Positions 21,526-30,012 of a DNA stretch of 64,000 nt are shown here, piece by piece (the stretch's first letter is position 1; every line of letters starts with the position of its first letter). This DNA is from a phage. Location of the stretch: assembly GCA_012474735.1 (NCBI GenBank), contig GCA_012474735.1_4085.1. One strand, given 5' to 3'. A model generated the notes under the pieces. That model searched no databases and was not told the DNA's origin. It worked only from the letters and a program-made list of their open reading frames with translations. The translations under genes were made by a program, and so were the position numbers.

Positions 21526-21905
21526 TTAATAGGATACTCCTTTCCTTGTACTATATATGACAAAATCCATCCGTAATGAATAGGATGATTTTTGTCTGAA
21601 TCAGGAATAAAATATAAAGCTGTACTTGGATTATGACTGAATAAATCTTTATTGTCAAATGTAAAATGTGATAATATAATTTTCCTTGCACTTGGACGAA
21701 TAACATTCTTAACACTGAACTCTGAACCTTTGTATTTCTCCGATAATTCAAATAATGCATCTGTAATTAAATCACTGATCTCTTGGATTACAAAATTCTG
21801 ATAAAATGCATTAATCTCTTTTAACTCTGTATACAATTCACTTCTGGTATTCAAAAGAAATATTACTTTTTTAAGATCCTGAACTATTTCTGGATTCATA
21901 TTCAT
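21513..21905 (-). CDS. hypothetical protein
   Basis: 130-aa ORF. Confidence 0.45.
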   Translation of the reverse strand: MNMNPEIVQDLKKVIFLLNTRSELYTELKEINAFYQNFVIQEISDLITDALFELSEKYKGSEFSVKNVIRPSARKIILSHFTFDNKDLFSHNPSTALYFIPDSDKNHPIHYGWILSYIVQGKEYPIKWKD

Positions 21906-22137
21906 TTATCTCATTCTGTAACTTAAGCATCAAAATTTGCATATTAATTTTTTGTAAAAGGTGCTTGATAAATTTCTGTGCCATTTCTTCTTGTTCTTTT
22001 GTACCAAGATAAAATAACAGATTAAATTCTGATAATCGCAAAGAAAAATCTTCATCACCACCCTTTAAACAAAAATCCCTGTACTTTGTAGCGTACAAAT
22101 ATTGGTTTACCTTTTTATAATACCCTGTGTTTTGCAT
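21871..22137 (-). CDS. F2 paralog, unknown function
   Basis: ORF; motif YLGTKEQEE. Confidence 0.55.
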   Translation of the reverse strand: MQNTGYYKKVNQYLYATKYRDFCLKGGDEDFSLRLSEFNLLFYLGTKEQEEMAQKFIKHLLQKINMQILMLKLQNEINEYESRNSSGS

Positions 22138-22325
22138 ACTATCTCCGTTCGCAACGAATTTATATAATAATGAACAAATTGTTCTTGTGAACGTGTTCCA
22201 AGAAAAATAAACATATCAAACTCTGTTGTTTTTAAATTCAATGCATCTTTTGTAAAATTCCTGTTGAATTCCCTGTACTTTTGGGTCTTCCATTCTTGAT
22301 TAATTGTCTTGTATATCGATTTCAA
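22107..22325 (-). CDS. F2 paralog, unknown function
   Basis: ORF; motif FLGTRSQEQ. Confidence 0.55.
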   Translation of the reverse strand: MKSIYKTINQEWKTQKYREFNRNFTKDALNLKTTEFDMFIFLGTRSQEQFVHYYINSLRTEIVCKTQGIIKR

Positions 22326-22626
22326 TGATTCTCCCTGATGTACCTTGTATTAGCTTATCATACATATCGAGCATCACTTTTTGAATACTAATTAGTACTG
22401 GCATCGTGCAAATATCAATGTCGTATACTAAGCTGTACTGGAATAATTCATCTTCCTGCATTTGTACTAAATTAGGTAAAGGATAATTGTCTGCCTCTTC
22501 ATCCTGGTACTTGAAATGCATAACACCATCCTTTTTGTACAAAAGAATGTCAATATCACCTAACTCATCAGCATAACCAAAAATACATATACTCGATGTT
22601 TTTGCTATATTAAATTTCATCTCCAC
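22300..22626 (-). CDS. F1 paralog, unknown function
   Basis: ORF; motif EDELFQYSLV. Confidence 0.6.
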   Translation of the reverse strand: MEMKFNIAKTSSICIFGYADELGDIDILLYKKDGVMHFKYQDEEADNYPLPNLVQMQEDELFQYSLVYDIDICTMPVLISIQKVMLDMYDKLIQGTSGRIIEIDIQDN

Positions 22627-22862
22627 CTCTCACCGTCAGCACAAGAGTACTGGTACGTTGTCGTTAGGGTAGGGACCATGTTTGTAATGGGCATGTTGTT
22701 AACAATAACCGTAACAGGCATAAGAATCGTCTCTTCTCTACTCTGTCCTGTCCTTGTGCAATTCATCTTCTGCATTTCATCTGAATCCATGAAATACAAT
22801 ACAAATGGTGCAATCCCAAGAACAATACACAAAACGATAAGGAAATTTAAAAAATTTAACAT
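22617..22862 (-). CDS. small membrane protein (hydrophobic N-terminal segment)
   Basis: ORF; N-term MLNFLNFLIVLCIVLGIAPFVLYF; RBS agggtaaaaattATG; own promoter. Confidence 0.5.
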   Translation of the reverse strand: MLNFLNFLIVLCIVLGIAPFVLYFMDSDEMQKMNCTRTGQSREETILMPVTVIVNNMPITNMVPTLTTTYQYSCADGERWR

Positions 22863-22891
22863 AATTTTTACCCTATGATTAACGTTAGTGT

Positions 22892-22920
22892 ACTATATCA
22901 GTAATGAAAAGTACTGTCAA
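22892..22920 (-). promoter_or_regulatory. sigma70-type promoter (TTGACA-N17-TATAGT) for 22617..22862
   Basis: rc reads TTGACAgtacttttcattactgaTATAGT. Confidence 0.5.
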
Positions 22921-22921
22921 G

Positions 22922-23326
22922 CTAGTATTGCACTGTTCTAATGAAAGTACCTGAACTCATGGATTTAAGCTTATGAACCTCTTCCTGTATACCCTTGAGC
23001 AACTCTAAAGGTATAGGTACATCATGTACTAAGCTGTACTGAAAGTATTCTTCTTCAGATAAAGTACTAACATCTGGAACGCCAATTTTAGTTATATAAT
23101 CTTGATGTGTTGACCAATAAATTATATCTTCAGTACTATTGTACTCCCCATATACTGAACAGTATTGATGAATATCTTTCCTGTACCCTTGAGCAATAAA
23201 GAACTTATCTACTGCATTACCAGCATTAATAGAATTCACTTCGATTGTCACAGTACTTGAGCTTGTATAACTCTTAGTATTATCAGTACTTTTAATACTC
23301 AACTGTGTGTTCTTCATAATCACCAT
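22922..23326 (-). CDS. F1 paralog, unknown function
   Basis: ORF; motif EEEYFQYSLV. Confidence 0.6.
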   Translation of the reverse strand: MVIMKNTQLSIKSTDNTKSYTSSSTVTIEVNSINAGNAVDKFFIAQGYRKDIHQYCSVYGEYNSTEDIIYWSTHQDYITKIGVPDVSTLSEEEYFQYSLVHDVPIPLELLKGIQEEVHKLKSMSSGTFIRTVQY

Positions 23327-28371: not shown

Positions 28372-28526
28372 TTACATTTATCCCTTATTAGATTTGTGAG
28401 TGCAACTATGTGTTCATGGATATAAAAATTCTGATGAGAAGTTCCAAGAAAGTACAGCATCCATCCCTCACTCTGCTCGACTTCTAGTTTAGTATCGAGT
28501 TGGTCAGATATGTTAATGAAAACCAT
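28368..28526 (-). CDS. F2 paralog, short member (52 aa), not in ORF track
   Basis: ATG at 28524-28526 overlapping upstream stop (TAATG); motif FLGTSHQNF; stop overlaps next ATG. Confidence 0.45.
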   Translation of the reverse strand: MVFINISDQLDTKLEVEQSEGWMLYFLGTSHQNFYIHEHIVALTNLIRDKCK

Positions 28527-28750
28527 TAGTTCTTTTCCTTTCTTTCTATTTGTTTCATAAGAACATTGATATACTCACCCGCAAACCTATTCTGATACTG
28601 CGTCCCCATGAATTCCAACATCCATACTTCAGCAACCTTTTCTTCAATTTCAGTCCATTGTAAGTACATCATAGTGAAGTAAATGGTGTTCTCTTTTTTT
28701 CTGGCACTCTTAGCACGGGCCTCGTATTCAAAGTTATTAATGATGTTCAT
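28526..28750 (-). CDS. F2 paralog, unknown function
   Basis: ORF; motif FMGTQYQNR. Confidence 0.6.
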   Translation of the reverse strand: MNIINNFEYEARAKSARKKENTIYFTMMYLQWTEIEEKVAEVWMLEFMGTQYQNRFAGEYINVLMKQIERKEKN

Positions 28751-28964
28751 TACATTTGTCCATTATGTAATTAGTGAGTGCAACTATGTGTGCAACAACA
28801 TACTCTTCCTGAAAGTTCGTCCCCAGTACAGCCAACATGCGTACATCGGTGGTGTTTATCTTGTGTTCCAATCGAGTTAAACCTTTTATTTGTAAAAGGG
28901 TATCGTATTTGTTTAATGCATCAATGATAATTCTCATCTTCTCAATATTACTTAAATGTTTCAT
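28737..28964 (-). CDS. F2 paralog, unknown function
   Basis: ORF; motif VLGTNFQEE. Confidence 0.6.
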   Translation of the reverse strand: MKHLSNIEKMRIIIDALNKYDTLLQIKGLTRLEHKINTTDVRMLAVLGTNFQEEYVVAHIVALTNYIMDKCNEHH

Positions 28965-29173
28965 AGTTTACTCTTAATGTAGTTCTGAAGTTCAATTAAG
29001 TATTTCCCTACATAATACTCCTGAAAGTCTGTATCCAAAAATGCACCCATAAGTAAATCCTTCTCCATTGCCCTTGATAAGTTAAGGTCTGCATTTGAAA
29101 GGTATATAAGTAATATTTCAGTCTGGACAGAATTGAAACGTTTCTTATATTCTTCTGGTGTTAATATAATCAT
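28961..29173 (-). CDS. F2 paralog, unknown function
   Basis: ORF; motif FLDTDFQEY. Confidence 0.6.
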   Translation of the reverse strand: MIILTPEEYKKRFNSVQTEILLIYLSNADLNLSRAMEKDLLMGAFLDTDFQEYYVGKYLIELQNYIKSKL

Positions 29174-29385
29174 AATTTGCTCCTGATGTATTTCTCTAGA
29201 GATGACAAATACTTTTCCTCATAATACTCCTGATAGTCTGTTCCCAAGAATGCACCCAAAAGTATTTCATTTTCCAATACCTCGGCTAAGTTTAAATCAG
29301 AAGTCTCTTCGTATATTATGAGGATTTCAAGTTGTCTGGCAGCGATGCGTTTAGTATATTGATATGAGTTTTCTATAATAATCAT
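29170..29385 (-). CDS. F2 paralog, unknown function
   Basis: ORF; motif FLGTDYQEY; close duplicate of 28961..29173. Confidence 0.6.
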   Translation of the reverse strand: MIIIENSYQYTKRIAARQLEILIIYEETSDLNLAEVLENEILLGAFLGTDYQEYYEEKYLSSLEKYIRSKL

Positions 29386-29591
29386 AGTTTACTCTTTATA
29401 TCTTGAATTAAAAATCGAATCCATTCTTCAACATAATCTTCCTGATGGTTTGTGTTCAGTACAGCCAACATGCGGATCTCTGCTCTTGCAACTTCAATTT
29501 CAGTTTTAGGCAGGTCTTTGCTGATATCCACCATTAAGTCCATGTATTTCAAGATAAGACCGTATGATTGGGTTCGTGTTATAGTTTTCAT
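29382..29591 (-). CDS. F2 paralog, unknown function
   Basis: ORF; motif VLNTNHQED. Confidence 0.6.
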   Translation of the reverse strand: MKTITRTQSYGLILKYMDLMVDISKDLPKTEIEVARAEIRMLAVLNTNHQEDYVEEWIRFLIQDIKSKL

Positions 29592-29788
29592 TGTTTCCTC
29601 GTGGACAATATTTTATTTTTCAATGTATCCATATATTGCCACACCCATCTACCCTGATAGTTTGTTCCCAATGTAATCAAAAGGTATAACTCCATTCGTT
29701 CTACGTGTGTGTCTGTGTTGTAAATCTTTACGTAGTTTTTACGTAACAGTGATTGATATTCTTCTTTATTTAAAATACGCATTTTCAT
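29588..29788 (-). CDS. F2 paralog, unknown function
   Basis: ORF; motif TLGTNYQGR. Confidence 0.6.
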   Translation of the reverse strand: MKMRILNKEEYQSLLRKNYVKIYNTDTHVERMELYLLITLGTNYQGRWVWQYMDTLKNKILSTRKQ

Positions 29789-29982
29789 AGTTTACTCGTT
29801 ATATCTTCAATTAAATACCAAATCCAATCGTTGACATACCTTTCCTGAAAGTTAGTTCCAATGAATAGTGCCATAATTAATTCACGCTTATAGGCAATAC
29901 CACGGTCATGGGACTTATACATTATCATAGCCATGTTATTGATAAGTCTTTCGTGGTGCTGTTCTTTAGTTAAAATACGCAT
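29785..29982 (-). CDS. F2 paralog, first gene of the array
   Basis: start at ATG 29980-29982 (MRILTKEQ) with RBS aagggag; motif FIGTNFQER; promoter just upstream. Confidence 0.55.
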   Translation of the reverse strand: MRILTKEQHHERLINNMAMIMYKSHDRGIAYKRELIMALFIGTNFQERYVNDWIWYLIEDITSKL

Positions 29983-30012
29983 AGGGACTCCCTTAAAATT
30001 AATATCAATCAT

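Follow-up and report, generated by a model that had tools for sequence, protein, structure and literature searches.

A tandem array of small-protein genes beside the terminal repeat of an Asteriusvirus jumbo coliphage

We analyzed a stretch of 64,000 nucleotides of phage DNA (GenBank assembly GCA_012474735.1, contig GCA_012474735.1_4085.1; here called the window), in which 33 minus-strand genes encode one family of small, strongly diverged proteins, 29 of them in an uninterrupted array just outside the direct terminal repeat. The family is conserved as protein, has grown by tandem duplication, varies in copy number between related phages, and is narrowly distributed. We infer that the array is an early, polycistronic battery of diversified binders of host or defense proteins, serving host takeover, counter-defense, or host range; we hold this reading tentatively, with somewhat more doubt than confidence.

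A 33-member family conserved at the protein level

By sequence match, the window is part of the genome of an Asteriusvirus jumbo coliphage. Across its whole length, the array region (23600-30100) shares 99.2% identity with Escherichia phages vB_EcoM_G17 (G17) and Sharanji, and 82 to 98% with slurp01, PBECO4, phAPEC6, 121Q, and other ∼350-kb Asteriusvirus jumbo coliphages; the genes under the nucleotide match in these relatives are all annotated as 'hypothetical protein.'

The list of open reading frames (ORFs) contains 29 contiguous minus-strand ORFs from 23626 to 30012, of 52 to 96 amino acids (aa) as longest ORFs, and four outliers lie outside this main array, two at 8886-9273 and two at 21871-22325. 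A family hidden Markov model (HMM) built from the 29 array ORFs was run on all six-frame ORFs of the window. It recovers the 29 ORFs on which it was trained at E values of 1e-17 to 1e-27 and finds exactly four more (8886-9092, 9055-9279, 21871-22137, and 22107-22325; E values of 3e-12 to 3e-6); the next match is a 35-codon out-of-frame relic, and the remainder all have E values >0.7. All-against-all BLAST places 32 of the 33 members in a single family, the largest in the window. The core, [LIVM]-[GDN]-T-x-x-Q, lies ∼20 residues from the C-terminus and precedes an amphipathic helix (V/I..Y-I/L..L...I); this holds for 32 of 33 members, the exception being 27652-27912, where T replaces Q and there is an insertion. 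A scan for the core heptad finds it in 28 of 29 array ORFs and, elsewhere in the window beyond the family's coordinates, gives one 8-residue chance match. The family of about 33 proteins with this motif, first proposed in a sequence-only reading of the window, is thus recovered in full. All 10 members tested match PHROG 4148 (E values of 7e-9 to 1e-26), mostly over positions 1 to 72 of its 74-position profile.

The genes are as follows; where no other evidence is given, each is supported by the ORF list and the HMM.

23626..29982, minus strand: main array of 29 contiguous family genes (ORF list, HMM, and PHROG 4148 for tested members; same genes annotated in G17)
29785..29982, minus strand: member 1, first gene, 65 aa from the ATG at 29982 (longest ORF to 30012); Shine-Dalgarno sequence 7 nucleotides upstream; a 198-nucleotide gene in G17 and fEgEco12
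29588..29788, minus strand: member 2, 66 aa, core LGTNYQG
29382..29591, minus strand: member 3, 69 aa, core LNTNHQE
29170..29385, minus strand: member 4, 71 aa, acidic, isoelectric point (pI) 4.5, second AlphaFold2 model
28961..29173, minus strand: member 5, 70 aa, LDTDFQE, 51% identical to member 4
28737..28964, minus strand: member 6, 75 aa (also PHROG 4148)
28526..28750, minus strand: member 7, 74 aa
28368..28526, minus strand: member 8, 52 aa, N-terminally short
28114..28371, minus strand: member 9, 85 aa (also PHROG 4148)
27885..28157, minus strand: member 10, longest ORF 90 aa, probable start 28136 (MKTLSS; also G17 annotation)
27652..27912, minus strand: member 11, divergent core TGTDKT with a 6-residue insertion (HMM E value 2e-18, alignment)
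27450..27665, minus strand: member 12, 71 aa
27235..27453, minus strand: member 13, 72 aa (also PHROG 4148)
27026..27244, minus strand: member 14, 72 aa, pI 9.3, first AlphaFold2 model
26799..27029, minus strand: member 15, 76 aa (also PHROG 4148)
26558..26824, minus strand: member 16, longest ORF 88 aa, probable start 26797 (also PHROG 4148, G17 annotation)
26506..26610, minus strand: out-of-frame relic of a family C-terminus, LKNSIENKCEV, at the junction of members 16 and 17 (HMM E value 0.002)
26265..26555, minus strand: member 17, longest ORF 96 aa, probable start 26528 or 26519, recent duplicate of member 16 (HMM, repeat D3)
26053..26268, minus strand: member 18, 71 aa
25822..26052, minus strand: member 19, 76 aa
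25578..25832, minus strand: member 20, 84 aa, 57% identical to member 19
25355..25606, minus strand: member 21, 83 aa (also PHROG 4148)
25144..25386, minus strand: member 22, 80 aa
24917..25147, minus strand: member 23, 76 aa, LNTNYQA
24724..24939, minus strand: member 24, 71 aa
24500..24733, minus strand: member 25, 77 aa (also PHROG 4148)
24300..24515, minus strand: member 26, 71 aa, LDTDSQE
24088..24303, minus strand: member 27, 71 aa
23870..24091, minus strand: member 28, 73 aa
23626..23901, minus strand: member 29, last gene, longest ORF 91 aa, probable start 23868 (also G17 annotation)
22107..22325, minus strand: outlying member, 72 aa (HMM E value 5e-11; PHROG 4148 E value 7e-9)
21871..22137, minus strand: outlying member, 88 aa (HMM E value 2e-6)
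9055..9273 (six-frame ORF 9055-9279), minus strand: outlying member, 72 aa, core VGSNKQD (HMM E value 3e-6)
8886..9092, minus strand: outlying member, 63 to 68 aa (HMM E value 3e-12; PHROG 4148 E value 2e-16)

The genes are tightly packed, mostly with a 4-nucleotide overlap (ATGA) at their junctions, in agreement with the overlapping stop and start codons originally described. For the first gene, the most probable start is 29982: this ATG is preceded by an AAGGGAG Shine-Dalgarno sequence, and both G17 and fEgEco12 have the same annotated start. The alternative ATG farther upstream, at 30012, overlaps the −10 box and lacks conservation, being TTG in fEgEco12. Several of the 'long' members owe their length to spurious upstream starts.

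Conservation within the family acts at the protein level. Among the 29 array copies, the first and second positions of the core G, T, Q, and E codons carry 1.2 to 2.0 bits of information, whereas the third positions of the G, T, and E codons carry 0.2 to 0.6 bits and vary freely; the Q codon, which can end only in A or G, has these in a ratio of 18:11 (about 1.0 bit). An alternative is that what recurs is an element acting in cis as DNA or RNA, for instance a site for protein binding or a hotspot of recombination, with the ORFs a mere by-product; it can draw on the 17-nucleotide block that encodes the core, which recurs in nine copies with no more than two mismatches compared with 0.04 expected by chance. 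We give it next to no credence, because the codon-position information effectively refutes it. Moreover, only two copies of the 17-mer are exact, the closest gene pair at the nucleotide level is 74% identical over 226 nucleotides, all 33 reading frames are intact and are annotated as coding sequences in every relative, and Rfam and tRNA searches give no match. Pooled Nei-Gojobori estimates of the ratio of nonsynonymous to synonymous substitution rates (dN/dS) for orthologs are 0.41 (vB_Ec-M-J), 0.33 (121Q), and 0.38 (fEgEco12). Three-periodic information, two exact 17-mers, a top nucleotide identity of 74%, and dN/dS below 1 together argue for protein-level conservation, and a cis element acting irrespective of frame, which had been named as a finding that would overturn the coding interpretation, is effectively ruled out. 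The same data show that the earlier description of a strongly conserved nucleotide block able to support recombination was overstated, as low nucleotide identity makes the copies poor substrates for homologous recombination.

AlphaFold2 models of two members, both predicted from one alignment of the 33 paralogs only, have a mean predicted local distance difference test score (pLDDT) of 97.2 and a predicted template modeling score (pTM) of 0.82 for 27026-27244 and of 97.9 and 0.83, respectively, for 29170-29385, which is 21% identical to it. Both predictions have one topology: a short N-terminal strand, helices at approximately residues 8-17, 19-27, and 33-47, and a long C-terminal helix at 54-71, preceded by a loop whose core Thr is joined by a beta-bridge to residue 3 or 4. 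The family fold is thus predicted to be a compact four-helix domain with one beta-bridge, in a soluble protein of ∼70 residues, rather than the helical hairpin that had been thought likely. The core places an E in helix 3 and L-G-T-x-x-Q-E at the start of helix 4. Conservation across 254 family sequences is high at the start Met, L/I6, E42, L45, L49, G50, T51 (94%), Q54 (96%), V58, Y61, I62, L65 (93%), and I69, a set comprising the hydrophobic face of helix 4 and a small polar cluster at the loop/helix-4 junction. The models suggest that the core motif is mainly a structural keystone tying the N-terminal strand to the last helix, leaving the remaining surface free to vary. The N-terminus had been described as variable and basic; it is variable, but not uniformly basic, with a net charge of the N-terminal part ranging from −5 to +8. 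Whole proteins range in pI from 4.5 to 9.9 (pI >8 in 16 of 33) and in net charge from −6 to +9.

No characterized domain had been recognized in these proteins, and our remote-homology and structure searches likewise give no significant match. Pfam, NCBIfam, PADLOC, and PDB-sequence searches return nothing consistent or significant, the PADLOC models giving only scattered single-member matches at E values of 6e-4 or weaker. Structural neighbors are generic helical matches only; nothing in PDB or BFVD is significant, and AcrIIC4, at an E value of ∼4 and a template modeling score of 0.28, is noise. No Pfam or NCBIfam DNA-binding model (helix-turn-helix or other) matches, and there is no DNA-binding structural neighbor. 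The C-terminal extensions of 121-aa members of the type found in Klebsiella phage RaK2 have no Pfam match.

A profile search of 1.84 billion representative proteins gives 101 matches at E values of ≤1e-3, all of 52 to 122 aa save one. That one, a 1,771-aa RhoGAP-repeat protein, is spurious, and domain fusion was accordingly rejected as a clue to function. Named members of the clusters come only from Asteriusvirus, from ∼350-kb 'E. coli' draft contigs, and from the Klebsiella RaK2/K64-1 group, the rest being metagenome contigs. RaK2 has ∼13 members scattered in groups of one to three through the syntenic region, and a divergent 101-kb metagenome contig has 12 contiguous and 4 scattered members; tblastn of divergent metagenomic members against isolated phages gives no match. 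The presence of members in Asteriusvirus, the RaK2 group, and metagenome contigs suggests that the family is older than the divergence of Asteriusvirus and Alcyoneusvirus and came together as a long array among the coliphages. A search of 5,426 complete RefSeq E. coli genomes gives no match to the array, even though NCBI lists many family proteins as 'Escherichia coli'; these come from ∼350-kb draft-assembly contigs that look like whole jumbo-phage genomes sequenced along with the isolates.

Amino acid identity between paralogs averages 25% and reaches 57% at most, and neighbors are more alike than non-neighbors (0.31 versus 0.25; permutation p < 1e-4). The pair 26558/26265 (members 16 and 17) contains a 226-nucleotide repeat at a spacing of 269 nucleotides (repeat D3), which is the duplication unit; the relic at their junction resembles the end of gene 26799-27029 and marks this 269-nucleotide tandem-duplication unit, with boundaries inside the upstream gene. 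The main array has 29 members here, 28 in fEgEco12, 26 in vB_Ec-M-J, and 23 in 121Q. With orthogroups defined at ≥65% identity, these four lineages have 41, of which 16 are universal and 7 private to one lineage. Synonymous divergence (dS) varies from 0 to ∼1 between orthologous neighbor genes, which points to mosaic exchange between phages. We conclude that the family grew by local tandem duplication and is still turning over between related phages. Its dN/dS equals that of neighboring non-family small genes of the unique region (0.32 to 0.39) and is about twice that of terminal-repeat genes (0.09 to 0.21).

The array at the edge of the terminal repeat

The genome of fEgEco12, whose termini were verified with PhageTerm and by restriction digestion, has a direct terminal repeat of 20,993 bp (PMC13070987). 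Position 1 of that genome corresponds to window position 50,516 and position 20,993 to 30,080, so the window holds the whole repeat (30,081-50,516; ∼20.4 kb), which must be collapsed in the source record. In vB_Ec-M-J, the annotated boundary lies in the same alignment column. G+C content is 30 to 35% left of 30 kb and 36 to 41% across 30 to 50 kb, with a step from 0.35 to 0.41 at the inner boundary, and coding strand and GC skew flip near 50.5 kb, at the outer boundary. The last repeat gene of fEgEco12 ends at 20,841 and the first array gene starts at 21,091; in the window, the first array start codon is ∼98 bp beyond the boundary, in the unique region. The array is the first transcription unit past the repeat, co-directional with the repeat genes, and would form an operon. 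The boundary and the flanking signals are:

30080..30081, no strand: inner boundary of the direct terminal repeat, mapped from fEgEco12
30013..30040, minus strand: sigma-70-like promoter TTGACT-N16-TAAAAT, 10/12 consensus, the only intergenic promoter candidate for the array
18955..18976, minus strand: terminator-like hairpin with a 9-bp stem and TTTTTT, the first strong one downstream of the array

The promoter-like site at 30040-30013, pointed out in the sequence-only reading, is present and is conserved in four relatives; across the five phages its −35 box is invariant, and three have TATTAT, a better box, at −10. A promoter/terminator scan finds no comparable minus-strand terminator between 30000 and 19000, and as the first convincing one is at 18976-18955, the transcription unit may extend for ∼11 kb. 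Two internal promoter-like sites on the minus strand, at 25138-25110 and 28362-28334 (11/12 and 10/12, respectively), were considered as independent promoters and are probably not; they are explained by codons of an N-terminal MKHLTDDE (TTG ACA GAT; repeat D16). Within the terminal repeat, eight perfect (12/12) TTGACA-N16/17-TATAAT sites lie on the minus strand between 31.8 and 39.7 kb, each before a separate small gene; perfect promoters are far denser here than elsewhere in the window, the array included. A divergent metagenomic relative has the same layout, with a promoter-rich region followed by TTGACA-N16-TATTAT and then 12 contiguous members.

Several features of these regions can be noted in their own right. 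A 266-nucleotide non-coding stretch (29970-30235), which takes in both the array promoter and the boundary of the repeat, shows 96% identity among five phages, between which the adjoining array genes differ by 10 to 40%; it may hold a signal defining the genome terminus besides the promoter. Three identical minus-strand hairpins, GGGATTGACTCCGGTCAGTCCC, at 31538-31559, 33806-33827, and 36810-36831 include the −35 box TTGAC in the stem, and in the promoter/terminator scan the copies at 31538 and 36810 are followed by a TATTAT −10 box. These look like combined terminator and promoter cassettes between small terminal-repeat genes. The same hairpin design is found in the divergent metagenomic phage L006 (733-754, 4153-4172, 6952-6973, and 8249-8280), where a small gene in the promoter-rich repeat-like region (5375-5626) encodes a ParE-like toxin domain (PF24732). 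Directly after the 18955-18976 hairpin there is a promoter-like site at 18938-18910, TTGACA-N17-TATCAT with an upstream TG.

Candidate functions of the paralogs

The reading that we tentatively favor is that host RNA polymerase would transcribe the array early from the sigma-70-like promoter, with read-through from the terminal repeat adding to transcription, to give one long polycistronic mRNA. Overlapping stop and start codons would couple translation of the genes, and each paralog would be a stoichiometric binder of a different host or competitor protein. A role in interaction with the host or its defenses, implied by the sequence-only reading, is plausible. Consistent with such a battery, paralogs only 21% identical share a predicted fold, so that one scaffold presents varied surfaces; the array adjoins a promoter-rich repeat, and its own putative promoter is conserved in relatives; and the genes behave as accessory genes, with 23 to 29 copies, 16 of 41 orthogroups universal, and dN/dS about twice that of repeat genes. 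RNA sequencing of PA5oct, a related jumbo phage, shows high transcription of its terminal-repeat genes at 5 min (PMC7318152), and in the related phage CBB, the equivalent region of short genes beside and within the terminal repeat is suspected of early host takeover because of its RpoD-like promoters (PMC5259590).

A number of points weigh against this battery of binders. The array is outside, not inside, the terminal repeat, which makes the PA5oct analogy indirect, and the putative promoter has only 10/12 consensus in this window. We found no Asteriusvirus transcriptome or functional study of the family in the literature. The main weaknesses are the lack of a positive-selection signal and of similarity to known inhibitors. 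No positive selection is seen on the variable N-terminal half by pooled Nei-Gojobori estimates, and since dN/dS is below 1, equal to that of non-family neighbors, and alike in N- and C-terminal parts, there is no family-specific signal of this kind; nor did the sequence and structure searches that were run reveal any resemblance to known anti-defense, host-takeover, or protein-inhibitor families. The conserved polar residues E42, T51, Q54, and E55 could also mark a shared functional site instead of a structural one, in which case a single partner or ligand for all would be a better match than 33 separate targets. A related scheme, possible but doubtful, is a binder library on a single scaffold, in which the conserved face (E42, G50-T51, and Q54-E55) docks a common hub and hypervariable surfaces each catch a different defense or housekeeping protein of the host.

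The retention of polar E42, T51, Q54, and E55 at 25% average identity speaks for an explanation in which the paralogs serve the phage's own proteins, as adaptors, chaperones, or regulators that hold a common hub with the E-GT-QE face and present variable surfaces to clients. The clients could be members of the co-expanded families of the same region described below, with which family members are interleaved here (21871-23636 and 8886-9273) and in RaK2. We consider this unlikely, because covariation or fixed pairing with the neighboring families has not been demonstrated and the location of the residues at the loop and helix 4 lets a structural role, in the beta-bridge and helix N-terminus, explain them adequately. 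The small helical proteins with pI >8 in 16 of 33 members and net charges up to +9 would fit nucleic acid binders, either specific transcription regulators or small architectural DNA or RNA binders for a 350-kb genome, and a transcription-factor or structural DNA-binding role was suggested by Iyer et al. for the zinc ribbons of phage G (PMC7824862). No DNA-binding model or structural neighbor was matched in the searches above; we regard such a role as quite unlikely.

It is also conceivable, though distinctly improbable, that the array is largely functionless filler, its duplications kept because extra DNA is tolerated, or even needed, by a larger capsid, as in the ratchet proposed by Hua et al. 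(2017). The clear tandem-duplication signature, a copy number of 23 to 29, and the fairly relaxed dN/dS of 0.33 to 0.41 fit this view, and Hua et al. read the 121Q array simply as tandem duplication (PMC5646251). However, all 33 frames are intact with dN/dS clearly below 1, paralogs at 25% identity keep both the core motif and a confidently predicted fold, and the family is older than the Asteriusvirus/Alcyoneusvirus split, with 16 orthogroups kept in all four lineages. Finally, the inner body seen in 121Q and phAPEC6 capsids (PMC5646251, PMC7247149) raises the question of whether the proteins are packaged virion components injected with the DNA. This is highly improbable: none of the 62 virion proteins of phAPEC6 identified by mass spectrometry is of 7.5 to 11 kDa (PMC7247149), with the reservation that small proteins can escape detection, and the promoter context of the array is early-type, not late-type.

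The family is already catalogued, and such an array has been mentioned once in print. PHROG 4148, together with the half-length PHROG 28039, is the same family (end-to-end profile match; E values down to 1e-26), as a catalogue entry giving no function, structure, or context. Hua et al. devoted one sentence, without coordinates, to an array in 121Q (mBio, PMC5646251). We find 23 contiguous and 2 nearby members in 121Q at the syntenic position, and as the window and the 121Q stretch examined have no other paralog family as large, theirs is probably the same locus. They described no function, fold, or terminal-repeat context, and the array genes are not 'very similar' as in their account, with an average amino acid identity of 25%. 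New here are the predicted fold without a recognizable structural neighbor, the protein-level constraint, the exact placement relative to the terminal repeat, and the figures for distribution and turnover.

The host-takeover module of Bacillus phage SPO1 and the pre-early genes of phage T5 are clusters of many small genes, mostly of unknown function, at the terminal redundancy; host RNA polymerase transcribes them early, using strong sigma-A/sigma-70 promoters, and they are aimed at host shut-off. Those genes lie inside the terminal repeat, have a strong promoter for each group, and are mutually unrelated, whereas this array falls outside the repeat by ∼98 bp, has one moderate promoter, and consists entirely of paralogs; the likeness involves no sequence or structural similarity. 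A lineage-specific expansion of ∼35 zinc-ribbon proteins in Bacillus phage G (Iyer et al. 2021, PMC7824862) is a comparably large one-domain expansion in a single jumbo phage, again with a function that is only guessed. It differs in its zinc-ribbon rather than four-helix fold, in the phage lineage, and in the transcription-factor or DNA-binding role suggested for it. The African swine fever virus, a large eukaryotic DNA virus, has the multigene families MGF110, MGF360, and MGF505 at its genome ends. Segmental amplification of anti-defense genes is described for T-even phages (PMC13096335). These cases, variable-copy paralogs near termini or defense-driven tandem amplification, supply the evolutionary rationale for our reading, but this is analogy only, without homology; the array paralogs are ancient rather than recent amplifications, and we see no evidence that their expansion was driven by host defense.

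The array is a further instance of something already known from jumbo phages, where sets of small accessory proteins expand within particular lineages. Its 33 paralogs account for ∼5% of all genes in a 350-kb phage, which ranks the family with the largest expansions of a single family described for bacteriophages, and they occupy a conserved and conspicuous position as the putative first operon past the terminal repeat. If the paralogs are individual inhibitors of host or defense proteins, they would represent at least ∼40 orthogroups of new small inhibitors on one scaffold and a tractable model for gene-family expansion in phage-host conflict, G17 and Sharanji being cultured and their host E. 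coli K-12. A binder library, if real, would be ∼30 co-expressed proteins, a phage counterpart of the terminal multigene families of eukaryotic viruses and a new protein fold devoted to counter-defense. If the array proves dispensable, it would support a 'capsid ratchet' view of jumbo-genome growth.

Other paralog families in the window

Two further paralog families are present in the same early-type region, on the minus strand at 4263-14939 and 22300-23636, where their genes are in part interspersed with those of the 33-member family. The first comprises 11 proteins of ∼110 to 170 aa (PHROG 13866/15629) with the motif EEYFQ.SLV, and the second has 8 members of ∼150 to 165 aa (PHROG 9317); on sequence matches, we assign neither a function. 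On the plus strand, a tandem array at 54915-63422 consists of about eight genes for ∼40-kDa proteins and small fragments, all of one family. By size and position, these genes may correspond to the virion-detected 'DNA condensation protein' gp003-010 of phAPEC6.

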